NCBI GenBank assembly: GCA_902763905.1
Contig: CACWUA010000001.1
Coordinates: 11-64,010, forward strand
Reading direction: 5' to 3'
Origin: an uncultured Pseudomonadota bacterium
Lineage (GTDB): Bacteria > Pseudomonadota > Alphaproteobacteria > RF32 > CAG-239
DNA: 64,000 bases
A model generated the notes under the pieces. It worked only from the letters and a program-made list of their open reading frames with translations. It searched no databases and had not been told where the DNA came from. The position numbers and the translations under genes are program-made. The number at the start of each line of letters is the position of its first letter. Position 1 is the stretch's first letter. Shown here piece after piece: positions 8,545 through 35,738 of the stretch.

Positions 8545-10326
8545 ATGCGTATTAAGATGAATATGTCTCGATGTATAGGAGGCATGGCTGTAATGGCTTT
8601 ATGGTTTGTTACGGCCGTATATCCGGCGAGGGCAGACGTCTGCTTTTTGCCGACGGGAATATGTGAGCAAGGAGTTACCACCAAAAACGACACCGCCCAG
8701 TGCACTTTGAATCTCAGTATTTACAAGAGTGCGCCGGTAGAGGGCAAAAAGTGTACAAAAGTCGAGGTTCCCGGGTGTCCGACGGTGTATGAATGTTTTG
8801 ATGACAGCTGCGATGCCCGCGGTTATAAGATCAAAGGCACCACCAGTCAGACTACCTACCCGAACAGTTATAATCCGAATACTTGGACCTGTAACAGTTG
8901 TTTGCAGGGTAAGACGTATTTTTGGAATTGTACTCCGAAACCTTGCTCTAGAGGTACCACCAAAGCCAAAGCATCTTGTGCGGCCGGTTATGAGTGGCAA
9001 GCTCAGAATGATTACGGAATGTCCGGTAATGATAAATGCGGAACTTGCGTTATGAGCAGCTGTCCGTCCGGAACAACTTCGGCTCCGGCCAGCGGATGTC
9101 AAATTTGCGAAGTTAGCAGCAGACTGGTAAATGGCACTAAGTGTTACAAATGCCACAGCATGTCAACTGATTATAAAACTCAAACGCAGATTGACTCTAC
9201 ATACAGAAGAAACTTAGCCGGTTCTTGCTATCACTTTAATTCCAAACAAGCAGCTGACAACACAGTATGTTACAATGTTACGGAAAGTGAATGCGGCACT
9301 GATCAATACAAAGGTAAAGCAACCGTCAACGGCCAGATGGCTTGTCAGTGCGTTAATTATGCATACACTTTTGTAACAACAGACGGCAAAGAAGAAGTCA
9401 ATCTTAATTTTCCGGCAACCGGCGGTACTAGCAGTGTAGGGATAAGTTCGGCAAGGAGTGCTACATATTATGGCGGTGGTTTCAGTGAAGGAATTTATTT
9501 TTCGTCTCGAAATACTGAAGGCAGCGGTTTAAGTGTTAGCACATCTGGTAACGTAACAACAATATCCGCTCCTAAAAATGAGGATCAAACCACGGATAAA
9601 ACTTATACCGTACAACTTATCCAACAGTATTCAAACAAAGTAATTACCATCCATGTAAAAGTGGCTCATGATGCTTGTCCGAATGATTATAAATTTGATG
9701 ATAAATGTGAGCAAACCGGTTGGAGAACAAAAACCGATAACAGAACATCTACCACTGGTAAAGCGTGCTATAAGTGCTATAATGATAATTGCTCGACAGG
9801 GTTTACCAAGGGAACAACTCCGACTAACGGCAACTATGATACCGAGACAACACCGTATGGCTCTAACTGCTATAAAGCAAAGCCGGATGATTGCCCGAGC
9901 GGATATACCAAGGGTTCAACTCCGCTGCCGACAAATCACTATAACACCAGCACCACGCCATTTGGTAGCAACTGCTATCAGCAGATATCGGATGATTGCA
10001 CATACGGTTCTCTGAATCCGGGGTACTGCCCGTATGGCCGGAGTTATGTAGGTAAATCAACTTTAGGCAATGATTGCTATGAATGCGATTCGCCGTCTTA
10101 TTGGTGGGATGACGATGACGACGATGACGACGACGATGACGATGATGATGGTTGCCCAGCCGGTGAAACAATGACTACACACGCAGGTTGCTGTAAATGG
10201 GGTGAATTATATCATACTAGTGGATATTATAGCTGCTGCGAGTGCGGTTCAGATTCCGATTGCCCTAGTACAGGCATCCATGGTACGTATATTGGATGTG
10301 TCGGTTGTGAATGTGAGGGCTATTAA
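8545..10326 (+). CDS. Secreted Cys-rich, Thr/Ser-rich repeat protein with a poly-Asp(14) tract (no recognisable family)
   Basis: An AGGAGA RBS lies 7 nt upstream. The N-terminus is signal-peptide-like (MAVMALWFVTAVYPARA|DV). The protein has more than 60 Cys and internal repeats (TTPYGSNCYKAKPDDCPSGYTKGSTP / TTPFGSNCYQQISDDCTYG). A D14 run is followed by a Cys-dense C-terminus. Confidence 0.6.
   Translation: MRIKMNMSRCIGGMAVMALWFVTAVYPARADVCFLPTGICEQGVTTKNDTAQCTLNLSIYKSAPVEGKKCTKVEVPGCPTVYECFDDSCDARGYKIKGTTSQTTYPNSYNPNTWTCNSCLQGKTYFWNCTPKPCSRGTTKAKASCAAGYEWQAQNDYGMSGNDKCGTCVMSSCPSGTTSAPASGCQICEVSSRLVNGTKCYKCHSMSTDYKTQTQIDSTYRRNLAGSCYHFNSKQAADNTVCYNVTESECGTDQYKGKATVNGQMACQCVNYAYTFVTTDGKEEVNLNFPATGGTSSVGISSARSATYYGGGFSEGIYFSSRNTEGSGLSVSTSGNVTTISAPKNEDQTTDKTYTVQLIQQYSNKVITIHVKVAHDACPNDYKFDDKCEQTGWRTKTDNRTSTTGKACYKCYNDNCSTGFTKGTTPTNGNYDTETTPYGSNCYKAKPDDCPSGYTKGSTPLPTNHYNTSTTPFGSNCYQQISDDCTYGSLNPGYCPYGRSYVGKSTLGNDCYECDSPSYWWDDDDDDDDDDDDDDGCPAGETMTTHAGCCKWGELYHTSGYYSCCECGSDSDCPSTGIHGTYIGCVGCECEGY
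10108..10149 (+). repeat. (GAY)14 trinucleotide microsatellite encoding poly-Asp
   Basis: Fourteen consecutive GAT/GAC codons lie inside the Cys-rich protein gene. Confidence 0.85.
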
Positions 10327-10380
10327 TCTCAATCAGACAGGTTAATATACCCAATCCATAATCAGGTACAAATATAAAAC

Positions 10381-10411
10381 AAAGGGAGGTGGTTTTATCC
10401 TCCCTTTTTTG
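10381..10411 (+). terminator. Rho-independent terminator (GGGAGG-loop-CCTCCC followed by T7)
   Basis: A 6-bp GC stem with a 9-nt loop followed by TTTTTTT, directly downstream of the Cys-rich protein gene. Confidence 0.7.
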
Positions 10412-10459
10412 TTGCATCTTGCGGATTCTTATGCTATACACCTCATCTGAGGTATAAAC

Positions 10460-11032
10460 ATGGCTGATGATGATAAATATAAAAGATGTCCGGAATATTG
10501 TCCGTTTTTGAAGGCTAACGGCACGTTTTGTGAATTGTTTCGCCGACCGCTGCAAACTGTTCAAGGAATATCACAAAAATGCGAAGAATGTAAAAATCCG
10601 GAACAGCGTAAAAGTTCTTATAAAGCACTCGGATTGTCTGTAGATGCTCGTGAACAGATATGGCAAAAAGCAATCTTGAAATATAACGAGATAGAACTGG
10701 GTAAAAAACGTGAAGAAGAAGGTGTGCGCAAAAAATTTGCGGCTCTTTTGGAAGATAAATACGGAGCACGTCCTCCGCTTGAAGGTAATGCGTTCTTAAA
10801 GAATTTGATAATCAATCTTTATATGGTGCTTGATGCCACCGAGCGCAGTATGATGGCGGCCATCTTAAACGGGCGCAACGGCGATAGATTGATTGAAGCC
10901 ATTGAACGTGCGCCCAAAGATGAAACTTTACTGCGTAATTTTCGCCGTGAACTTGATGGGCAATTTCAAGAGCATCAGCTGGAAATTAAACGAGAACAGC
11001 AGCAAAGAGACAATATAAATCAGCGTATTTAA
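10460..11032 (+). CDS. Hypothetical protein with an N-terminal Cys cluster (zinc-ribbon-like) and a charged coiled C-terminal half
   Basis: The ORF is 190 aa and a GAGGT Shine-Dalgarno lies 5 nt upstream. The N-terminus reads CPEYC..C..C-x2-C. No family was recognised. Confidence 0.45.
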   Translation: MADDDKYKRCPEYCPFLKANGTFCELFRRPLQTVQGISQKCEECKNPEQRKSSYKALGLSVDAREQIWQKAILKYNEIELGKKREEEGVRKKFAALLEDKYGARPPLEGNAFLKNLIINLYMVLDATERSMMAAILNGRNGDRLIEAIERAPKDETLLRNFRRELDGQFQEHQLEIKREQQQRDNINQRI

Positions 11033-11094
11033 AATATTTGTTGTATTTTTGTCAAATTGGTTTATAATCTATATAAATCAAAGGAGCAATGATA

Positions 11095-13023
11095 ATGACA
11101 GTTGAGACATTACTTACCAGAACCAAAGACAATTGTGTTATCGCATTTACCGTTTACTTTGGCAATGCGGCTGAAAAAACGCGCTTAAAACACGAGTGCG
11201 AAAACTTGTGCCGAAACCTGAATTATAATGAGTTTAACAGCAATATGCTGCGCTCGCACGGGATATCCTTTGATGCCGACAATACCAATTTTTTACACAA
11301 AGAAATTTCCGGATATCATTATCGCAAAGACCGTGCAAACTTTCGTAATGATATGCGTACCGATCCGCCGGCACAAACAAACACGTTGTCCCTATCCTAC
11401 CGGCTTACCGATGATGAATTTCCGGAGATGTTAAAGAATCTCGGTTTTAAAATCACACCGGTTGATAAGGCGTATAATGTGCGCTATAATCCTTCTCAAG
11501 GAAAGTTTGAGGCAGAAAATTTTGTAAGTACTACAGCAACTGTTTATTCAGATGACCGTAAAATAGAAATAGTCCGTAATCATTTTCGTTTTTCGAGTGC
11601 CGATTATCGCCGCTTAAACGAACTAAAAAATGATTTTTTTAATGCAAGGCAAAGCAATCCGCACTTAAGCATGTCATCTTATGTAAGCGCAATTCCGGAT
11701 TTACGCGACAGAGCCTTATTTGATTTTTATGCCCGCGAAAAAAGTAAAGTGGACAATCGCCGGACGACAATAGCTCACGAAATCAAGCATATTAAAAACG
11801 CTGTGTTACGAGACGGTTTAAACCTTAAGTCAAATAACAAACGCTTAAGCGTTGAAAATTATTACCGTATTGCCGTAGAAAACGAGCGTAGTGCGTATTT
11901 AGAAGAACTTGTGCAGAATATTAATGAGTATTTGCAAAAAGGTAATTATAACGATTTTTCGATGTTTTATGTTAATAATGCGGATTTTGTTGCTGAGCTG
12001 AAGCGCTTGCGTACACCGGCCGAACGTTTGGCATACGTGCGAAATTGGCCGCAATTGCTGGCAGTAAAAATGCGTGATTTTAACAGTAATTATTTGGATA
12101 AATACTTTAATCAGTTTAAGCAAATAACCGAATCGAGTATTGAAAATGCACCGCTCAATGCGCAGCCTGACAATGACGATGCAGAGTTCAAAAAATTGCG
12201 CTCGCTATTTTATAATTATCAGATTTATAATCCGGCGTCACATAGTATGGAATCCGTGAATTTGGCGGATTATCTTACTGCTGATTTGGAGATAAGTATC
12301 AATGATAGAGTGCGTCGTGAAATTATTGAACCGCAGCAAAATTGTTTGAATAGGCAGTTAAGCGATTTTGCCAGCGATAAAGCTGCCGGAAACATAAATC
12401 CGGAATTGATTGAGCCGGCAAAAGCACTAATGCGCGGAGGATTGCAAAGCAGCGAGTTTATAAACGAAGTGGATAATTTTCGTGTCTCTTCTTTGTATGA
12501 AGATGATGGTAATTCATTTCCGCAGCCGACAGCACCGTCGATTCCCAGCGATCATGCTCAATGGAGCAACAATTTGCAGCAATATTGGAGTAATACTGTC
12601 GGATATACCGAACTCGCCAAGAATAATGAAGAATATAAGTTTAAGATTAATGGTGCAACAGTACGGTACTCTTCGGATAAAGATGTTCAGGTTAGTCAAA
12701 ATGCAAATTACCAGTTGTATGTCAAGTTATTGAATGAACCGAGCAAACAGAATGCTCCGATTGAATTTTTGGAGACGCTGCGCAAAGAACAAAAACTGCT
12801 TCTTTATATTGCCTGTATCAATAACGGACGCAAACCTATCGGAGCAGTTCCGACAGATTTTTCGGATATTGAAAATTTGCAAGGCATAGCTCCGGCAGAA
12901 ATAAATAAATTCCGCCATCGGATGCAGCAACAATCAGGTGCGGCTCAAAATGCCAATGCGCAAAGCACTCAAACTCGGGCTCAAAAGATGTGTATGCAAA
13001 AGACTATGCAAAATACGCGCTAA
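11095..13023 (+). CDS. Hypothetical 642-aa protein with an HExxH..E (gluzincin-like) motif and no signal peptide
   Basis: TIAHEIKHIKN contains an HExxH motif, and ENERSAYLEE ~35 aa downstream is a candidate third zinc ligand. The C-terminus is Gln/Asn/basic-rich. The ATG at 11095 was chosen because it lies 9 nt after an AGGAG Shine-Dalgarno, whereas the ATG at 11089 is too close to it. Confidence 0.5.
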   Translation: MTVETLLTRTKDNCVIAFTVYFGNAAEKTRLKHECENLCRNLNYNEFNSNMLRSHGISFDADNTNFLHKEISGYHYRKDRANFRNDMRTDPPAQTNTLSLSYRLTDDEFPEMLKNLGFKITPVDKAYNVRYNPSQGKFEAENFVSTTATVYSDDRKIEIVRNHFRFSSADYRRLNELKNDFFNARQSNPHLSMSSYVSAIPDLRDRALFDFYAREKSKVDNRRTTIAHEIKHIKNAVLRDGLNLKSNNKRLSVENYYRIAVENERSAYLEELVQNINEYLQKGNYNDFSMFYVNNADFVAELKRLRTPAERLAYVRNWPQLLAVKMRDFNSNYLDKYFNQFKQITESSIENAPLNAQPDNDDAEFKKLRSLFYNYQIYNPASHSMESVNLADYLTADLEISINDRVRREIIEPQQNCLNRQLSDFASDKAAGNINPELIEPAKALMRGGLQSSEFINEVDNFRVSSLYEDDGNSFPQPTAPSIPSDHAQWSNNLQQYWSNTVGYTELAKNNEEYKFKINGATVRYSSDKDVQVSQNANYQLYVKLLNEPSKQNAPIEFLETLRKEQKLLLYIACINNGRKPIGAVPTDFSDIENLQGIAPAEINKFRHRMQQQSGAAQNANAQSTQTRAQKMCMQKTMQNTR

Positions 13024-27119: not shown

Positions 27120-27149
27120 GTCGTTGACTAATTCGTTTTAGTTTGTTAG

Positions 27150-27186
27150 AACGGCGGCATTATCACGATGTCGTCGTTCTTTTTTA
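27150..27186 (+). terminator. Rho-independent terminator downstream of hppA
   Basis: GAACGGCG...CGTCGTTC stem (1 mismatch) followed by TTTTTTAT. Confidence 0.45.
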
Positions 27187-27200
27187 TAAAGGAGTTTGTT

Positions 27201-27830
27201 ATGCTTAATTCTGCGCTTGAATTTATAAAAAGCTTTAATATAACGCAATTTACCGGAGCGTTTATCGTTTTGTTCGCTATTATAGACATTATCGGCACTT
27301 TGCCGATTGTGATGAATTTGCAACGCAACGGCCGCATTGTCAGCGCCTCTCGCGCCAGTATCATATCGTTTATTTTGTTTGTCGGGTTTATGTATATGGG
27401 AGAGGCTTTTTTGGGGTTGTTCAGCCTTGATTTATCTTCATTTGCGGTTGCCGGTTCAATTATCATTTTTGTGATTGCCATGGAGATGGTGTTGGACTTG
27501 GAGATTTTTCGTTCCAATAATGCCACCGGAAACGATGCCACTTTTACACCGGTGGTGTTTCCGCTGATAGCCGGTGCCGGTTCTTTTACGACCTTACTGT
27601 CGATTCGTTCGCAGTACTCTGATTTTAATATTCTGTTGGCGGTGCTGGCAAACGTAATCATTGTTTATTTTGCGCTCAAATCATCGCAAAAGCTCGAAAA
27701 AATATTGTCTCCGGGGGTTATCTGCATCTTTCAAAAGGCTTTCGGGATTATTCTTCTTTCCATTTCCGTAAAGCTGTTTACTTCCAACCTGACCATGATT
27801 GTCGAAAACATCTCCAAGTGTGCGGAATAA
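27201..27830 (+). CDS. marC: MarC family (UPF0056) integral membrane protein
   Basis: The protein is ~210 aa with 6 TM helices and the MarC-type pattern. An AAAGGAG RBS lies 8 nt upstream of the ATG at 27201. Confidence 0.75.
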   Translation: MLNSALEFIKSFNITQFTGAFIVLFAIIDIIGTLPIVMNLQRNGRIVSASRASIISFILFVGFMYMGEAFLGLFSLDLSSFAVAGSIIIFVIAMEMVLDLEIFRSNNATGNDATFTPVVFPLIAGAGSFTTLLSIRSQYSDFNILLAVLANVIIVYFALKSSQKLEKILSPGVICIFQKAFGIILLSISVKLFTSNLTMIVENISKCAE

Positions 27831-28333: not shown

Positions 28334-30547
28334 TTAGGCTTGTGGAGCGTCCATCTCGAAACCTTCGCTGTCATCCTCCTCGGCGTTGTATTCAATACCC
28401 AATTTGGCCAGCATATCGTCATTGATATCTTCACGCTGTGCCACCACCCAATCCGGCACGTTGGCACACGGCGGGAGTTTAGCCAGTTTAGTCATCTTCT
28501 TATCCAAATACCAACGCGGCGAATCGGCAATAATCGGCCGGTCAATATGACTTTGCATCAGTACCACTTGCTTTAACATCGGCAAACTCAAAAGTTGAGT
28601 CGAGCTGATTACCGGAATACCTTGCAGCTGGTAGTTAACGTTTTTCGCCAGCGGGTTAAAGTCTTTACCAAGTGAACCTTCCGTTCGCGAGAACGAAGAA
28701 ATACGAACAGTCTTGTTTCCTATCATCTTAGAGAAACGCTGTGCCGTAACCTCGTTGTTCTGCGAAAGAATAACTTTGCAGGCGGTAGTAGAAATCACCG
28801 TTTCCAAGTCATCTTTTCCGTATTTACCGGAAATTTGCCCCAAGTCTTGTCCGATTAGGAGGTACGACACTTTTTGACCACGACCTACGGCCGGTCCGTC
28901 AATAATGGCCTTCATTTTCGGCATTTGCGGAAACTCGTCGAGCACAAACAGGGCAGGGAACGGTCCCATTTTGCCGTCGGTACGGTTGACGTGATTCGGC
29001 GGATTGGAAATCAGATAAGAGCTCATCAATTCAATAAAGGTCGAACTGATAACGCCCAAAGCGCGCGCATCAACTTGGTTAACCGACAAATACACAGAAA
29101 TAGGCTTCCATTCACCGGTAATCGGGTCTTTCATACCGCGCAAATCCTTAAATTGCAAATCGGAGAAACTGGTACGCGCCTTAACCGCTTGGTTCTTAAA
29201 TACGTTAATACCGGCAAATGCCGTAGAAAGAATGGAACCGCGCTCCTTATCCGGCGTGTTACTCAAAGTACTCAATTCCGTAATACAGCGCTGAGCATAA
29301 CCGTAGTTGCGAGCCTCTTTGATAGCTTCTTCCAACATATCGTGCGTCGGGTCAGCCATTGCCGCCATTTGATCGCCTTCATCCAAACGACGTTGAATTT
29401 CTTGTGCCGCATTAATTTGCGCCTCAGTAATCCATTCCATAATCATGGCAATGCAGGCTTCACGCCCCATCCACCTTGACGGTAGCAGATTCCACGTACC
29501 GATTGGCAGATAGTTTTCCATGGTTAAAGTGCCGTTTTTTAAGTTTTGAATGGCACGCGGAGCTCCCGGATCACGCATATCCTGATAATATCCTTCAAGC
29601 ACTTCTTTGTCTTTTTCATCAAGTTTGCCCTCATAGATGCGACCGATAAAATAGTCGTTGGCGCGGGCGCGATCACACTTTGAAACCACAAATTGAATAA
29701 ATCCGGTTAAGGCTGCACGGCCGGTTTGTGACCAGTGCGGGTCGGCACCGCCTTTCGGATCTTCTACCAAAATATTGCACATGGAATCCACATACATATC
29801 GCGATCCGGCCCTTGTTCCGGAATACAATTCGGCGACAACGGATTCCAGCTTGGATAATAAATACCTTCACTCGGGTTATCTTCCGCACCCCAGTTAATG
29901 ATAAATACCGGCCCCACCTTGGCACGTGCACCGGAAGTTTTGTAACAAAGCTCCGGTTTCGGGTCATTAATCACCAAACTCAAGCCCTCCGAGTGGAAAA
30001 TCGTCGGCATCACCACACCCACGGTTTTACCGGTACCAGGAGGCGCACAGCACAGGGTTGCCAATGTTTCTTTCAAAAGCAAAAACTTGCCGTCAAATTT
30101 TCCCACCACTTGGCAGAAACCGTCAAATCCCAATAATGGCATCTTTTTTATATCGCGCAAATCGGCAATTTTGGCTTGACCTTGATAGTTGACTTGGAAT
30201 TTGTACGGACTGAAAATGGCACTGATGATTATACCGAGTGGAATTGTTATAAAAGGCAGAAGAGGAATCCATAAACTTAAAGAAAATGGTCCGCGGTGAT
30301 TCCATAATTGTTTCCACCATCTTCCATACATTGTAAACAAATGATTAGGATCATGCATAATAATTGTTAAAAACTTCTGTACCACGGTTGTTGACGACTT
30401 AGATAACCCATGACCTACAACATAAGAAAGAGGTAGACTGAAGATAAATAAGATTATGGTGAGACCTATGCAAATAAACAATGTTATCAACATCCATCGA
30501 ACGGCTTTGTCATATTCTTTCCATTCTTCACCACGATCGTTGGCCAT
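28334..30547 (-). CDS. virD4: Type IV secretion coupling protein VirD4/TraG family ATPase
   Basis: Two N-terminal TM helices, a Walker A (CCAPPGTGKTVGVVMPT), the TraG/VirD4 core and an acidic C-terminal tail (EEDDSEGFEMDAPQA). Confidence 0.85.
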   Translation of the reverse strand: MANDRGEEWKEYDKAVRWMLITLFICIGLTIILFIFSLPLSYVVGHGLSKSSTTVVQKFLTIIMHDPNHLFTMYGRWWKQLWNHRGPFSLSLWIPLLPFITIPLGIIISAIFSPYKFQVNYQGQAKIADLRDIKKMPLLGFDGFCQVVGKFDGKFLLLKETLATLCCAPPGTGKTVGVVMPTIFHSEGLSLVINDPKPELCYKTSGARAKVGPVFIINWGAEDNPSEGIYYPSWNPLSPNCIPEQGPDRDMYVDSMCNILVEDPKGGADPHWSQTGRAALTGFIQFVVSKCDRARANDYFIGRIYEGKLDEKDKEVLEGYYQDMRDPGAPRAIQNLKNGTLTMENYLPIGTWNLLPSRWMGREACIAMIMEWITEAQINAAQEIQRRLDEGDQMAAMADPTHDMLEEAIKEARNYGYAQRCITELSTLSNTPDKERGSILSTAFAGINVFKNQAVKARTSFSDLQFKDLRGMKDPITGEWKPISVYLSVNQVDARALGVISSTFIELMSSYLISNPPNHVNRTDGKMGPFPALFVLDEFPQMPKMKAIIDGPAVGRGQKVSYLLIGQDLGQISGKYGKDDLETVISTTACKVILSQNNEVTAQRFSKMIGNKTVRISSFSRTEGSLGKDFNPLAKNVNYQLQGIPVISSTQLLSLPMLKQVVLMQSHIDRPIIADSPRWYLDKKMTKLAKLPPCANVPDWVVAQREDINDDMLAKLGIEYNAEEDDSEGFEMDAPQA

Positions 30548-30563
30548 TTTGCTTTACTCCACT

Positions 30564-32081
30564 TTATTTTATGTTTTTCAAAACGTTGCGTATATTATCC
30601 AGTTGTTTTTTAGTTACTTTTTCATCAGCCTCGCTGAGAATCTTAGAAAACAGCTTAATTTCCTTCGGTGCACCGCGATTTATGCGTGTAACCTCAATTC
30701 CCATTTCGTTCCATATATCAAACATATCATCAGCATTAATAATATTTGCCATTTGAATAATCACACATGAAGTGATTTTTTGCTCAAATTCGTTTTCATC
30801 GAGTGCGGTCTCAATCAGCTTTTTCACATTATTAAGCTTACAAACCGGTGAAACACGATGACTGCTTTCAGAGAACCACAACGGCTCTTCTCCGTTAAAC
30901 ATCTCCTCATCGGCCAACCAATCACCGCTTTCTTTATCGACTAAACATAAGTAGATATCATTTTGTGAAACACCGACAAAGTCAATAAGTGTACCTTTAA
31001 CCGAAATATTGGTAATAACATCATAATTCTTTTGCAACAATGTTTCATAAACCGGACTGCGTGGCGTATCATTTGTTTTGTTATCCGAATTTCTGGAGCG
31101 CCGTTCACTGCTTCTCTCTTCGTCATCGGTATCACGCTGACGTGAACTGCGCCTAGATGTTTCATCAGATTTACGCGAAGATTTGCGCGAAACTTTATCT
31201 CTGTTGTCGCGTCGATTCGCACGCGGTGATTCAAAGTTTTCTTCATCTTCATCATTATCTTCGTCGTCATCATCATCAAAGTCGTATTTCGGCTTGGAGT
31301 GTTTACTCGGCTGGTTGATTTTCTCTTCATTATCATCCGAATGTTTTTGGGATTTTCTCTCGTTTGTCGGTTTTTTCTTTCCTATATCGGCTTTTTCAAA
31401 GGAGTCGATATCCAAATCGAAATCATCATCATCGTCATCGTCAAATTTGAATAATGCGTGGTCAATTGTGGCGGCCACATCAGTCTTTTTCTTAGCCGTA
31501 GCCGGAGCCGGCGACTGAGCTACCATCGGAGCCGCATAAGACGAACCGGCAACTGCTGCCGCCATCGGTGCGGAAGTAGCCGAATTGCCGTAATCGGAAA
31601 TAGGCACTCGCAAAGTATTAATTCCCGTCGGTCGAATCAACTTATATGATTTACGTTTAACCACTCCATAGCGGTTATTGCCTGTAGATACCGACGAAAG
31701 AGGCGACTTGTCGCTATATTTTTTATAGAGTGTATACGGAAGCTTTATTATATTCCATATAACTTCTTCCCAAGCCACCATGCATAGTGTCCACCAACCG
31801 GTAATCAGCATCGGGAAAAATACAATCATTAAAAGAATAAATGCCCACTCTTTAGGCGCGCGCGGAATCCAACCCGCTTTCCATGTTGTAGCGAATTGAT
31901 GCCAATGATCAGGCCAGAAAATATCAAAATGCCAATTACACAGCATAATTACGCGAATACCCTCTGTGAAGACAATCCCCCACAGGCATCCGACAATTAG
32001 AATTCTAAGAAATACCAATATGGATTTCAACTGCGCACTCCGTAAATTTGCCAATACACTCACTATATTAATAGCACTCAA
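30564..32081 (-). CDS. Hypothetical two-TM membrane protein with poly-Asp/Glu and Arg-Ser-rich disordered tracts (DotM-like position and topology)
   Basis: The ORF is 505 aa and its stop lies 16 nt upstream of the virD4 start. It has two N-terminal hydrophobic helices, low-complexity D7/D5EDNDEDEE and SRKSSRKSDETSRRSSRQRD tracts and a ~150-aa C-terminal globular region. Confidence 0.55.
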   Translation of the reverse strand: MSAINIVSVLANLRSAQLKSILVFLRILIVGCLWGIVFTEGIRVIMLCNWHFDIFWPDHWHQFATTWKAGWIPRAPKEWAFILLMIVFFPMLITGWWTLCMVAWEEVIWNIIKLPYTLYKKYSDKSPLSSVSTGNNRYGVVKRKSYKLIRPTGINTLRVPISDYGNSATSAPMAAAVAGSSYAAPMVAQSPAPATAKKKTDVAATIDHALFKFDDDDDDDFDLDIDSFEKADIGKKKPTNERKSQKHSDDNEEKINQPSKHSKPKYDFDDDDDEDNDEDEENFESPRANRRDNRDKVSRKSSRKSDETSRRSSRQRDTDDEERSSERRSRNSDNKTNDTPRSPVYETLLQKNYDVITNISVKGTLIDFVGVSQNDIYLCLVDKESGDWLADEEMFNGEEPLWFSESSHRVSPVCKLNNVKKLIETALDENEFEQKITSCVIIQMANIINADDMFDIWNEMGIEVTRINRGAPKEIKLFSKILSEADEKVTKKQLDNIRNVLKNIK

Positions 32082-32108
32082 ATATTAAAAAAGTGAATAT
32101 ATTTTTCG

Positions 32109-32585
32109 TTAATTGTTCGATTCTTGTATTTTCTCAATAATTTCTTTGCGAAAATCAGTAACATTTTCGGATTTGGTTTTTTTCTTTTCTTGATCAAGCC
32201 TCTCCTTAATGAACTGATCCAACGATTTTTTTTCTTCTATTTTTAAGTTTTTGATATTAACATCGGGAGCCACATAGCCGTCAAACCCGCTGTTAAAGAT
32301 TTTGTTGAGCGGCACCGTCAGTAATTTCATATACTTAAAGTGATATAATTTATACCAACCGTAAAAACAAAGCGGCACCACTGATAAAACCATTGCAATG
32401 ACAATTAAATCCTTGCCCTGCAAGACATTTCCTCTGTTCCAAAAGTTGGACAAACTGCGATAGAACACCGGCGGCGTGGTATGATAAACCAATAGTATAA
32501 TGAGCTGTACCAAGCCGGCCAGAATGGCCATCCACAAAACACAGGCAACTAACACGCAAATAAAATGAAAAAACTTTTTAATCAT
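32109..32585 (-). CDS. Hypothetical small membrane protein (2 TM) with a charged C-terminus
   Basis: The ORF is 158 aa with two hydrophobic helices and sits in the same operon, 27 nt upstream of the next gene. Confidence 0.45.
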   Translation of the reverse strand: MIKKFFHFICVLVACVLWMAILAGLVQLIILLVYHTTPPVFYRSLSNFWNRGNVLQGKDLIVIAMVLSVVPLCFYGWYKLYHFKYMKLLTVPLNKIFNSGFDGYVAPDVNIKNLKIEEKKSLDQFIKERLDQEKKKTKSENVTDFRKEIIEKIQESNN

Positions 32586-32652
32586 CAGCGGCCTTCTCTT
32601 GTACCCTGCGGTCTGATTTGCTGCATCTCATGCTTTTTATTTATGCGGTTTT

Positions 32653-34695
32653 TCATCCTATCGAGATTAATTTTGCGTTTTTTGTTATTCTCTTTGCTTG
32701 CGGCGTTTTGTTCTTTTTTCCTTCAATATCTCTATCCCATTGCTGTTCTTTTTTATGTCCGGAATTTTCCTCTCGTGCCGCTTCATCCGGTCCCATTTTG
32801 GTGGATTTCTTCGGTTTATTGTTACCTTGCACTTGCGCTCGCTCTCCTTCGCTGGGTGTGCGGTAATGATTGTAGAACTTATCAAACTCGACTTCCTGCG
32901 CTTTCATCTGCTGTTCCAGAACTTTTTTCTTGGCCGGATCTTGTTCGGTATGGTATGCACATTGCAAATCTCTCAGAGTCTTACCCTCACAACAGATATC
33001 TGCATAATATCCACCCAATTCTTTTGCCGCCGAATTGGCAATCTTAAGTTTTTCTTTAGGCGGGATTTCGGCATCCGGAGCAAGATGATGCTCAACTCGA
33101 TAATCATTTTCTTTTTGCTTAAATATGACTGAGGTTGTTTCCATCATATCAAACATTTTAATCAATGTTGCTTTCTGAACATAAGCTGCGGCCTCAGCAT
33201 TGCCGTCCAGCTCTTTATCCGGATTTTTTCGAACATATTCATTGGTCGCAAGATGCGCACACAATTTGACCAAATCATTCTTTTTGCCGTCTTTATGGAT
33301 AGGAAAAACAGTTTCCAATTTTTGGGGATCCTTTTCCAATTCTGTAATTTTTTGCATAAAATAACCCTTATCGGAGGCAAAAATCTCATTCATGGTTTCG
33401 GCAAAATTTTGATGTATTTTCGGATCAAATACCACAAACGGCACACCTTTTTGCGGAGCGCCGATAACAGGCTGCCATTTGTCCGGATTTTTGCCGATAT
33501 TGTTTTGAATGCAGCGCAGCATCGGTTGTAATCTTTGCGGATTTTTCATCAAGTCTCCGAATTTATCGACAAAGTCGGCGCGAGTAGCATCAGCCAGTCG
33601 GCTCATTTGCTGCGCAAAAGCGTTAGCTTCCGGCGAAAGCTCAACCGCAGCGGCATTTTGAGGGCTATTACCACTGTTGCCGGCTTTACCAGCAGCTTTG
33701 GCCGCAGCAGAAGTTCTAACCGGAGCTTGTCCTTCTCCGCATAAATAATCCAAACCGGTATCAAGTGTCTTAAATGCTTTTTGCATAACATAGTTAATTA
33801 AACCGAGAAACCAAACGTTATAAAGGTATTGAATTAAATCTTGTTCTTTTACCGGATCAAAATTAAAATCACCTTTTTTACCGCGTTCGGAATCGCGTTT
33901 AGAATCTTCGAGTTGAGCTGTATTTTCCGCTTTTTCATCGTCATTCGGCTTGTTTTCCGGCGGAGTTTCAGCTGAGATATTGAGTTTGTTGCCATCAGCC
34001 GAGAAATTTAATGTATCTGCCTCATTTTCTGGCAATCCTCCCATTCTTATCGGTTCCGATTCGGATTTTTGTTCTTCTGTGCTCTGATTCAATCCTGACT
34101 TTTTTAAGGATTCATTCAGCGCATTTTGCAAAATAAAAGATTTTTTTGCCAAATCCTTATATTTAAGGCTACGTGGTTTGGAGGCATCAACTGCATTAGC
34201 CGCTTTACTTAAAACTTCATCATAATCCAACTTTGCCAATGTTTCGGAAATATCTATCATCACATTGCTGTTTTTATCAAGCAGTTCCAGAGTGTTTTTG
34301 TCTTTAATGCGTTTTTGCTTAAATTCGGCGGCGTACGTATTAAGCGCAACAATTGTCATAATATTTTTGCCGCTTTGCGGATTCTTTTCCGTTAAAAATT
34401 GTACCATTTGCTCGTTGCTTATTTTTCCATCTTCATTAAGCTCTTGCATGGCTTTTAGGGCATTTTTGATACCTGTCAGATTCTGGAATCCGAGTTTTTT
34501 GGTTTCCTCTTTACTCCCGTTCGGAATAGGAGCAGGAAAGATCGCGGCTTTCAGAGCATCGGGCAAATGACCGATACCATATCTAAGCATACCGGCTTTT
34601 ATCAGCTCCATGTCCATATTTACTTCTTTATTCAATTCTGCGCAGAAGAGTTTAAAATCATCAGCTTCATTTGCATTTTTTATATCTTCAGCCAT
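32653..34695 (-). CDS. Hypothetical 680-aa soluble protein, acidic and Lys-rich, no recognised domain
   Basis: Long ORF on the same strand within the virD4 operon. It has no TM segment and no known motifs; codon usage is consistent with its neighbours. Confidence 0.55.
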   Translation of the reverse strand: MAEDIKNANEADDFKLFCAELNKEVNMDMELIKAGMLRYGIGHLPDALKAAIFPAPIPNGSKEETKKLGFQNLTGIKNALKAMQELNEDGKISNEQMVQFLTEKNPQSGKNIMTIVALNTYAAEFKQKRIKDKNTLELLDKNSNVMIDISETLAKLDYDEVLSKAANAVDASKPRSLKYKDLAKKSFILQNALNESLKKSGLNQSTEEQKSESEPIRMGGLPENEADTLNFSADGNKLNISAETPPENKPNDDEKAENTAQLEDSKRDSERGKKGDFNFDPVKEQDLIQYLYNVWFLGLINYVMQKAFKTLDTGLDYLCGEGQAPVRTSAAAKAAGKAGNSGNSPQNAAAVELSPEANAFAQQMSRLADATRADFVDKFGDLMKNPQRLQPMLRCIQNNIGKNPDKWQPVIGAPQKGVPFVVFDPKIHQNFAETMNEIFASDKGYFMQKITELEKDPQKLETVFPIHKDGKKNDLVKLCAHLATNEYVRKNPDKELDGNAEAAAYVQKATLIKMFDMMETTSVIFKQKENDYRVEHHLAPDAEIPPKEKLKIANSAAKELGGYYADICCEGKTLRDLQCAYHTEQDPAKKKVLEQQMKAQEVEFDKFYNHYRTPSEGERAQVQGNNKPKKSTKMGPDEAAREENSGHKKEQQWDRDIEGKKNKTPQAKRITKNAKLISIG

Positions 34696-34775
34696 TAAAG
34701 TATCTCCTTCAAAGCAACTTGATTTTTATTAATTGTATCATAAAAAAATGTTTTTGTCCACAACTATTTCTTTGC

Positions 34776-35738
34776 CTAAACTTTTACTTTTTTCATAAAT
34801 TTACCGATTTCAATATTGACGCGAATGCCATCTTTGGGAGTAACCTTTACCAATCCGAAAAAACGCGGTTTTATTTTGGCAAATTCAATCGGGGCAAAAA
34901 TTGCCGGATTGGTGGTTAGAGCCTTAAATGCGCCGTCAACATCTTTTTGTGCCACACGGAAATAATTGCTGACAAGGCGTTCGGCATCTATCGGAAAATT
35001 TTTTTTCTTTACGGCTTCAACCAAACGTTTTTGACGTTCTTTGCGTTCTAAATATTCTTCATAAAGCATTCGTTTTATGTGTTTTTCCTGATATTTAAGC
35101 AATTTAGCCTGATAAGTCAGTTCACAGCTTTCCATGTCAATCAAGATCTCGACATACGAGATTACGGCTAATTGCAAGTCCTGATCGCGTAAAGTCTCGG
35201 CAAAATTCAAAAATTCTTCATCGGTGGCAGAAACGTTAAATCCACCGACACTGTCCGGATAAATCTCACGCAATACATTCCAGCCGGCAACTAAGTCAGT
35301 CGCCAATAAATGTCCTATACTAGGTTTATAGTTCGGGTACAAAAAATCAATTTCAAACTCCCAGTTTAATGAAGGTATACTCTTGGCCGCACAAATCTTA
35401 TCAATAGAACCGCGATAATTTATATAAGCCTGCGCTAATTCGGATTCTTCACTTCTCAATTCTGGTTTCTTTTCTTCATCTTCAATAACTGTGCGAGCCT
35501 GCTCAAAAGTTTCAGCCAGTTCTTTTTCAAATGCATCTGAAGCGGCATCGTTTTCCGTCTGTCCTTGCTGACTCAAAGCCGGTTCTTCCGGTTTTTCTGC
35601 CGGTGCGGTTACAGCGGTTTCATCATCTTCCTCTAAATCATCAACTTTAGAGTTAATAAAGCTGTTTAAAAGCTTTTCAAAATCATCACCTTGGCTAAAT
35701 TCATTTTCATCACTCATAAAATCAGTACTCCTTTGCAA
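34776..35738 (-). CDS. Hypothetical 320-aa protein with a strongly acidic N-terminal third
   Basis: First gene of the minus-strand operon, divergent from rluD. No recognised domain. Confidence 0.5.
   Translation of the reverse strand: MQRSTDFMSDENEFSQGDDFEKLLNSFINSKVDDLEEDDETAVTAPAEKPEEPALSQQGQTENDAASDAFEKELAETFEQARTVIEDEEKKPELRSEESELAQAYINYRGSIDKICAAKSIPSLNWEFEIDFLYPNYKPSIGHLLATDLVAGWNVLREIYPDSVGGFNVSATDEEFLNFAETLRDQDLQLAVISYVEILIDMESCELTYQAKLLKYQEKHIKRMLYEEYLERKERQKRLVEAVKKKNFPIDAERLVSNYFRVAQKDVDGAFKALTTNPAIFAPIEFAKIKPRFFGLVKVTPKDGIRVNIEIGKFMKKVKV

Follow-up and report, generated by a model that had tools for sequence, protein, structure and literature searches.

The 64,000-nucleotide stretch of DNA analysed here (hereafter the window; positions 11 to 64,010 of contig CACWUA010000001.1, from an uncultured alphaproteobacterium of the RF32 lineage) carries on its minus strand five consecutive open reading frames (ORFs) at 28334-35738, which encode in 5'→3' order proteins of 320, 680, 158, 505 and 737 amino acids. 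The last is a type IV coupling protein (T4CP) of the VirD4 type, and the others are called p320, p680, p158 and p505 below. Our subject is the leading pair, p320 and p680, which a preliminary description of this DNA had put forward as adaptors or translocated substrates of a type IV secretion system (T4SS). Most likely they form a lineage-specific accessory set of a chromosomal VirD4-type ATPase in uncultured gut and rumen Alphaproteobacteria. Both ORFs are present where that description had placed them, at 34776-35738 (minus strand, 320 residues from a TTG start) and 32653-34695 (minus strand, 680 residues from an ATG), and the p158 gene (32109-32585) lies, as had been said, between this pair and the genes for p505 and VirD4.

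Both proteins are soluble by sequence, in agreement with the preliminary description: no 19-residue window in either of them reaches a Kyte-Doolittle hydropathy of 1.6, and inspection of the two N-termini shows nothing like a signal peptide. No match to p320, p680 or p158 was found in Pfam, NCBIfam or PADLOC, and PADLOC also returned nothing for p505 and VirD4, so that membership of an anti-phage defence system finds no support for any of the five. Likewise, p320 and p680 carry no housekeeping, defence or enzyme signature in these three collections, and homology to housekeeping or metabolic proteins, looked for in Pfam, NCBIfam and profiles against the PDB, was absent. Remote homology, which had been proposed as a check, was examined with family profiles against all PDB chain sequences and with Foldseek comparisons of the structural models against the PDB; neither gave a match, whether to a known adaptor, an effector or a housekeeping protein.

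The locus is fixed in place between chromosomal housekeeping genes (dnaE, the H+-pyrophosphatase gene and marC on one flank; rluD, rpoH and acrAB-tolC on the other) and does not lie in a variable island. The remaining genes of the window are of the same kind, namely typA, dnaJ, polA, mnmE/G, parAB, ATP synthase genes and the like.

Architecture of p320 and p680

The p320 protein is acidic, as had been described (pI 4.71, net charge -20), and is all-alpha in its AlphaFold2 (AF2) model, with a predicted local distance difference test score (pLDDT) of 70 overall and about 90 in the core. Since all 47 aligned orthologs start at the residue equivalent to Met8, its coding sequence is probably 34776-35717, beginning with the ATG at 35717 and encoding 313 residues. 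The charge is unevenly distributed: -19 of the net -20 falls within the first 80 residues, which bears out the strongly acidic N-terminal third noted earlier, and the last 40 residues form a basic C-terminus with a net charge of +7. Homologs of p320 amount to 616 clusters, each of which likewise starts at the Met8 equivalent, and an exhaustive profile search over 1.84 billion representatives gave 140 matches.

The alignment and the profile searches divide p320 into an N-terminal motif with its linker, a middle (M) domain and a C-domain. The motif, the amphipathic DDFEKLLNSFIN at residues 18-29 (35652-35687, minus strand), contains seven residues (F20, E21, L23, L24, F27, I28 and N29) that are invariant in the 47 sequences; after it comes a linker (residues ~30-90; 35469-35651, minus strand) that is acidic and variable, also in length. 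The M-domain (residues ~91-225; 35064-35468, minus strand), with the blocks ESELAQ...LYPNYKPS...DEEFLNFAE...DQDLQLAVISYVEILIDME, was delimited by profile search and hhalign and is the most confident region of the AF2 model. The C-domain (residues ~245-320; 34779-35006, minus strand; FPIDAERL.SNYF...TNPAIFAPI...GKFMKKVKV), found by profile search, also makes up the C-terminal half of stand-alone proteins of 205-217 residues in metagenome-assembled genomes (MAGs) of Alphaproteobacteria.

The M-domain has a counterpart in another phylum. It aligns over 146 columns with the C-terminal region of Bacteroidales Sel1 and TIR-Sel1 proteins of 300-1076 residues (hhalign probability 99%, E 8e-18); one such cluster is named Barnesiella, and at one locus TIR-domain genes form an array whose neighbours are of Bacteroidota type. 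The TIR-Sel1 proteins of about 1000 residues end in DDEFEKLLNDFINSSSEED, which is the N-terminal motif of p320, here positioned after the M-domain and not before it. Domain and motif are thus common to two phyla in permuted order, and since they travel together in this way it is suggested that they interact with each other. Examples of such TIR-Sel1 genes from gut Bacteroidales, again in TIR-domain gene arrays, are found at L090 (10001-12973) and its neighbours and in P0212, P0215, P0255 and P0278.

The p320 motif (DFEKLLNSFIN, 35652-35687) also weakly resembles, by eye, the first helix of the C-domain (DAERLVSNYF, ~34965-35000, minus strand). BLAST marked this likeness only against the distant homolog P0331 (DAQKLINNYF), with E = 0.16, and it may be an internal repeat, a mimic of the helix or chance. 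A PopZ-like reading, to which the succession of N-terminal helix, acidic linker and helical C-domain might point, found no support in Pfam and was set aside.

In contrast to p320, which is modular and moderately conserved, p680 is hypervariable, and the two are not to be treated as one class. Nor is p680 acidic, as had been claimed: with a pI of 6.27, 15.3% Asp plus Glu against 14.7% Lys plus Arg and a net charge of -4 it is near neutral, and the argument from composition for an adaptor or effector therefore does not apply to it. Its AF2 model (pLDDT 62) consists of helical N- and C-terminal regions around ~130 disordered residues.

The window copy of p680 differs from a 98%-identical relative of the same species (P0001, 703 residues, from L008) at the C-terminus alone. 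Alignment of the DNA and of the P0001 protein traces this difference to a one-nucleotide deletion in a homopolymer at 32715-32720 (minus strand), A6 here and A7 in L008, which frameshifts the last ~21 codons and removes a conserved basic, Arg-terminated tail. With the base restored, p680 would have 703 residues and end at 32585, where its TGA overlaps the ATG of p158 (TGATG) as in the relatives. Either the assembly is in error here or the frameshift is real, and then possibly phase-variable.

A word-index search recovered 15 relatives of p680 at 27-45% identity, and two rounds of local profile search join 69 of the 73 ORFs that occupy its position into one family; the profile does not match the proteins in this slot of L084-L087, L094 and L096, even at E ≤ 10. 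The most conserved part is a hydrophobic helix, PVKEQDLIQYLYNVWFLGLINYVMQKAF, at residues ~280-318 (33742-33858, minus strand), with invariant columns from V282 to K306. It is the only segment that tblastn still detects in distant loci, and analogous aromatic helices can be seen by eye in the slot proteins that cannot be aligned. An N-terminal amphipathic helix after acidic residues (DFKxFCxEL, or more loosely EKLFxLLNK) was picked up by eye and regular expression in 14 of the 69 proteins, which is weak evidence. In the most distant subclade, the slot ORF of L084 (11127-13259, 710 residues) opens with a J-domain-like stretch (DLYEVLEI...KILSD), recognized by eye, that has no HPD motif.

The C-terminal tails are retained although the bodies of p680 proteins are unalignable between subclades. 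When compared with ORFs of at least 250 residues from the same loci, and with the reservation that counts within the family are not phylogenetically independent, the last 30 residues of the p680 family carry a mean net charge of +4.1 (background +0.9), 54 of the 69 proteins have an Arg among their three final residues (background 14%), and 30 of the 69 have Gly-Arg among the final four (background 4%). This is the pattern expected of a C-terminal recognition signal, a candidate signal which the window copy would have lost through its frameshift.

Conservation, transcription units and the other genes of the cluster

The p320 alignment was used to scan one genome per GTDB species, which gave 123 species, and 80 loci were examined. 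All species with p320 are uncultured Alphaproteobacteria from the rumen, ruminant gut, human gut, horse and rabbit, the closest relative of the window being the goat-rumen MAG RGIG3536 (98% identity for p320, 100% for VirD4). The order rpoH-rluD <> p320-[variable ORF]-p158-p505-virD4, with virD4 no further than 7 kb from p320, is seen in 64 of the 80 loci. Of the remaining 16, twelve run into a contig end, and four (L023, L027, L043 and L044) have different genes downstream of p320: in L023, L043 and L044 there is no virD4 unit within 10 kb, and none lies within the ~2 kb covered in L027. With this reservation, p320 and p680 are retained wherever this same virD4 is. The p680 slot holds a single ORF, of 381-1069 residues, in all 73 usable loci.

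Median identities to the window proteins are 84.5% for VirD4, 77.7% for RpoH, 68.2% for RluD, 51.8% for p320, 50.4% for p505, 40.8% for p158 and, where it is detectable, at most 27.6% for p680. The ratio of nonsynonymous to synonymous substitution rates (dN/dS; Nei-Gojobori method, against three relatives) is 0.01-0.03 for VirD4, 0.007-0.04 for RpoH, 0.06-0.07 for p320, 0.06-0.12 for p505 and about 0.2 for p680. All five genes of the cluster are under purifying selection, with p680 the least constrained, and since these ratios are low, both p320 and p680 are real genes under constraint. Over L008-L087, VirD4 is more conserved by median identity than sigma-32 and RluD, and its constraint equals that of sigma-32; its dS lies below that of its neighbours, as does the dS of the H+-pyrophosphatase. 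Coupling proteins are not usually conserved to this degree, which suggests that the function is a core one and highly expressed.

The preliminary description had both genes heading the virD4 operon, which clearly holds for p680 but not necessarily for p320. The 80-bp spacer between them contains a promoter-like site (TGGACA-17-TG-TACAAT, 34732-34760, minus strand) followed by a ribosome-binding site, GGAGAT. This is the best match to a sigma-70-like consensus in the 8-kb region, in which the total of promoter-like sites is no higher than chance; nine species with saturated synonymous sites keep its -35 box, extended -10 box and ribosome-binding site, and the rest of the spacer varies. In L005, L006 and L024, moreover, the p680-p158-p505-virD4 unit is inverted and converges on p320, which stays beside rluD. 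From the conserved promoter-like site and these inversions, p680, p158, p505 and virD4 make up one unit with its own conserved putative promoter, an operon headed by p680, and p320 would be separately expressible.

The virD4 gene (28334-30547, minus strand) was correctly recognized before. Its 737-residue product is of VirD4/TraG type: it matches PF02534 (7.3e-57), PF12696 (2.6e-21) and PF10412 (3e-17), has a Walker A motif (GTGKT) and a Walker B-like VLDEF, hydrophobic windows at residues 14-32 and 88-106 and an acidic C-terminal tail. The nearest plasmid relatives, at 33% identity, lie within a virB8-9-10-11-D4 cluster, and the window ATPase groups with the T4CPs of VirB/D4 type.

The p505 ORF (30564-32081, minus strand) encodes two N-terminal transmembrane (TM) segments, then a long low-complexity linker rich in charged residues, and a NERD-like domain (PF08378) at residues 348-442 (30756-31040, minus strand). 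The real start lies downstream of the listed TTG, near 32030, since orthologs have stops within the first ~17 codons of that ORF. NERD matches 13 of 19 p505 orthologs, the window domain scoring 22.7 bits against a cut-off of 22.1; the canonical ExK of the D...ExK motif is replaced, by eye, with VDKE, and the domain carries the invariant block GDWLADEE.FN.EEPLWFSE.SHR.SPV. By the positive-inside rule (two TM segments, then basic residues), the domain is predicted to be cytoplasmic. The earlier label of DotM-like had to be given up for NERD-like, as no DotM/IcmP/TrbA or other T4SS family was matched in Pfam, NCBIfam or the PDB sequences, DotL-complex entries included; the resemblance to DotM is one of topology only, a TM hairpin with a cytoplasmic domain. 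Single-sequence searches of VirD4 and p505 against PDB sequences gave nothing relevant. The small membrane protein p158 has two to three hydrophobic segments (32109-32585, minus strand, by hydropathy), and since the p505-like proteins of L094 and L096 also match it, p158 is a paralog of the membrane region with which proteins of the p505 family begin.

More distant lineages show the cluster in other surroundings. In L094, L095 and L098, where VirD4 is 59% identical, a p320 homolog of 352-368 residues heads a cluster of the order [p320-like][variable, 354-387 residues][p505-like x2][VirD4][354-367 residues][144 residues], which is divergent from two to three VirB6/TrbL genes (PF04610), with rluD missing from the vicinity. 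The distant homolog P0331, beside virD4, is 35% identical to p320 over its C-terminal 132 residues, retaining the C-domain. In L096 a 555-residue p320 homolog adjoins rluD and is followed by two p505-like genes. A C-domain protein gene in L092 is divergent from three tandem VirB6/TrbL-like genes and followed by a variable ORF of 595 residues and a p505-like gene; the 211-residue protein heading this divergent operon is mostly p320 C-domain. The link to a T4SS is regarded as real because such distant p320-p505-virD4 clusters adjoin VirB6/TrbL genes in places without rluD, and the association of p320, p505 and virD4 therefore predates the rluD neighbourhood, does not depend on it and goes with the genes of a T4SS channel.

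Two further features of these loci may be recorded. The tandem large VirB6/TrbL-like paralogs, two or three in number (L092 1-13611, L094 3290-9736 and L098 10001-15116; one of them with an RHS repeat), adjoin a highly conserved HTH_3 protein of about 330 residues. Downstream of virD4 there is an overlapping, conserved gene pair (L094 17166-18710; L098 1220-2722; also L064, L066, L067, L081 and L082) encoding a protein of 202-367 residues that starts MWDWSG or MWEWSN, and one of 144-156 residues. The long forms of the larger protein end in LGR, like p680 tails. The two may be an effector-immunity or effector-chaperone pair, for which Pfam offers no support; for the 367- and 144-residue proteins of L094 the toxin-immunity version was dropped on this ground and because shorter homologs have no GR tail.

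Elsewhere in the window, three successive ORFs of 593, 190 and 644 residues (8545-13023, plus strand) between polA and mnmE match no Pfam family at E ≤ 1e-5 and do not resemble the ORFs that are linked to T4SS genes in L092 or L094. Two ORFs without a family match are probably spurious: one of 160 residues (32565-33047, plus strand) antisense to the p680 gene, and one of 171 residues (27146-27661, minus strand) antisense to marC.

Proposed roles of p320 and p680 and their alternatives

The reading that we favour, with a probability of roughly one half, is that p320 is a scaffold or adaptor of a VirD4-p505-p158 platform and that p680 is its client, recognized by a hydrophobic helix and an Arg-ended tail. 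In such a scheme VirD4, p505 (a membrane hairpin with a cytoplasmic NERD-like domain) and p158 would build a coupling platform in the inner membrane. The soluble p320 would attach to it through its C-domain, acting as a T4SS-associated docking module, and its M-domain and acidic N-terminal helix would supply protein-protein contacts, possibly by self-association. The fast-evolving, cytoplasmic p680 would be the cognate client of p320, shown to VirD4 by way of its hydrophobic helix and basic Arg-ended C-tail, and would then either be translocated as a substrate, which is plausible, or be retained as a variable recognition subunit. The families of p320 and p680 are new; the kind of system, that of T4CP accessory proteins, is known. 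What stands of the earlier adaptor-or-substrate proposal is that the two are accessory proteins with a functional tie to a coupling ATPase, and a similarity to known adaptors or effectors, by profile or by fold, is the part that did not appear.

Several observations weigh against this assignment. The 64-kb window holds no VirB channel genes, and a search for VirB6-like or other T4SS genes, which covered the window and the 10 kb around p320 in each of the 80 species loci, found none. Profiles against the PDB and Foldseek produced no similar adaptor, chaperone, effector or T4SS structural protein, and the role is drawn from context. The p320 gene can be uncoupled from the virD4 unit, which is inverted in three loci (L005, L006 and L024) and not found nearby in four (L023, L043, L044 and L027). 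The closest non-alphaproteobacterial relatives of the M-domain, the Bacteroidales TIR-Sel1 proteins, have no T4SS context, and the domain is therefore not T4SS-specific. A client that is positionally fixed in every species is atypical for effectors, and the two AF2 models are of modest confidence.

It could be argued that both p320 and p680 are translocated effectors encoded beside their coupling protein, with no adaptor involved. The two are cytoplasmic proteins without a signal peptide, their C-terminal tails are basic (+7 over the last 40 residues in p320, Arg-ended in p680), p680 is hypervariable and rich in disorder, and the post-virD4 protein of L094 and L098 likewise terminates in LGR, with a small overlapping ORF after it. 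However, p320 is constrained (dN/dS ~0.07), is present in essentially every species and heads the cluster even at 59% VirD4 identity, and thus behaves as a part of the machine and not as a member of an effector repertoire; in addition, Pfam and NCBIfam show no toxin, enzyme or eukaryote-like domain in either protein, and the window contains no immunity-type neighbour. We consider this explanation unlikely. Less likely again is that p320 is independent of the T4SS, for example a scaffold tied to the rluD/rpoH neighbourhood, and that p680 alone belongs to the virD4 operon. The placement of p320 in three distant loci (L094, L095 and L098), where its homolog heads the virD4 cluster by VirB6/TrbL genes with no rluD, speaks against such independence, as do the C-domain paralog that also adjoins VirB6-like arrays and the p320 homolog that L096 keeps with p505-like genes; the notion of a housekeeping gene of the rluD neighbourhood is weakened by L094, L098 and L092. 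Its attraction lies in the facts that p320 is always divergent from rluD in the clade of the window, keeps its place where the virD4 unit has been inverted or is missing nearby and is separated from p680 by a conserved promoter-like site, and that Bacteroidales proteins with no relation to T4SS also contain its M-domain and motif.

Very improbable, in our judgement, is a module that handles DNA (export, import or processing) instead of secreting effectors, with VirD4 and the membrane NERD nuclease-like p505 as a translocase and p320 and p680 as nucleoprotein or relaxosome-like accessory factors. The NERD-like domain itself, the basic p680 tail, a window free of VirB genes and a VirD4 whose constraint matches that of sigma-32 and the H+-pyrophosphatase, suggestive of a core cellular role, would all suit this explanation, but neither a relaxase nor an oriT-like feature nor a DNA-binding domain was detected in the cluster (Pfam, NCBIfam), the NERD-like domain has by eye VDKE and no canonical D...ExK, and related lineages put the cluster beside VirB6/TrbL channel genes. 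A further thought, which we hold to be quite improbable, is that the M-domain and DDFEKLLNxFIN constitute a portable, head-to-tail self-associating module, used here as the cytoplasmic hub of an unusually constrained VirD4-NERD translocation machine and, in co-resident Bacteroidales, within TIR-Sel1 proteins. Such a module could have been exchanged between the phyla, or could give the Bacteroidales TIR proteins a built-in decoy or sensor for this T4SS; if so, the clade would have in its VirD4 module an organelle central to its lifestyle, possibly interbacterial, whose client is hypervariable and GR-tailed.

To return to the scaffold-and-client assignment, nature has replicated the locus in more than 100 species, a data set in which a VirD4 constrained like sigma-32 is accompanied by two membrane partners, a modular acidic scaffold and a hypervariable basic-tailed client, for none of which a homolog is known. 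If these roles are true, abundant uncultured Alphaproteobacteria of the rumen and human gut carry a conserved machine of T4SS type, with a bearing on their ecology. The M-domain and motif shared across phyla with Bacteroidales TIR proteins are an independent lead.

Comparison with known secretion systems

To our knowledge, accessory complexes of coupling proteins are understood in detail only for the Legionella Dot/Icm system, and substrate selection by VirB/D4 systems is largely open. A search of the literature on T4SS in RF32, on VirD4 with NERD and on VirB6 in gut Alphaproteobacteria found nothing relevant. The p320 and p680 proteins show no sequence or fold homology to IcmS/IcmW/LvgA, DotN, DotY/DotZ, VirE1, CagF or CagZ. 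With T4SS adaptors p320 does share a conserved genetic linkage to the coupling protein (64 of 80 loci, and L094 and L098), and the fixed position of both genes in nearly all species differs from the patchy presence of effectors, whose toxin or eukaryote-like domains were not detected in the two proteins.

The Legionella DotL/M/N-IcmS/W-LvgA-DotY/Z complex resembles the present cluster in that the coupling ATPase is encoded with a membrane partner composed of an N-terminal TM part and a cytoplasmic domain, in its soluble acidic accessories, which are absent from minimal VirB/D4 systems, and in the general plan of a platform with client-presenting adaptors. It differs in that PDB profiles and Foldseek detect no sequence or fold similarity, the membrane partner here is NERD-like and not of the DotM fold, the ATPase is of VirB/D4 type, and p320 (313 residues) is much larger than IcmS or IcmW. 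In Helicobacter pylori, CagF, an acidic soluble protein of ~270 residues, binds the C-terminal region of CagA and passes CagA to the VirD4 homolog. The proposed pairing of p320 with p680 would follow the same chaperone-client logic, although homology to CagF, Cag-beta or CagZ is not detectable, the genes are arranged otherwise, and p320 is modular with relatives outside T4SS contexts.

The rvh system of Rickettsiales is an alphaproteobacterial chromosomal T4SS spread over several loci, with tandem large VirB6-like paralogs. The present system would likewise be alphaproteobacterial, chromosomal and divided among several loci, and such tandem paralogs (L092, L094 and L098) and a strongly constrained VirD4 are found here as well; rvh virD4 follows virB8-11, whereas here virD4 follows the lineage-specific p680, p158 and p505, and no rvh gene corresponds to p320 or p680. 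As to substrate signals, the p680-slot proteins recall the Arg-rich tails of Agrobacterium substrates, the BID domain with basic tail of Bartonella and the XVIPCD proteins of Xanthomonas in their net-positive C-tail with Arg at or near the end despite hypervariable bodies, and p320 holds a portable domain found in other multidomain proteins. There is, however, no Pfam match of BID or XVIPCD type, the Gly-Arg end does not conform to the R-x7-R-x-R-x-R consensus, and the M-domain relatives reside in Bacteroidales TIR-gene arrays and not in effectors of the same organism. Taken together, the likenesses to the DotL complex, to CagF-CagA and to rvh are best described as functional analogies and not as family memberships, and if the proposed roles are true, the locus would provide a second, independently evolved coupling platform together with a candidate C-terminal signal, the Arg-ended basic tail.

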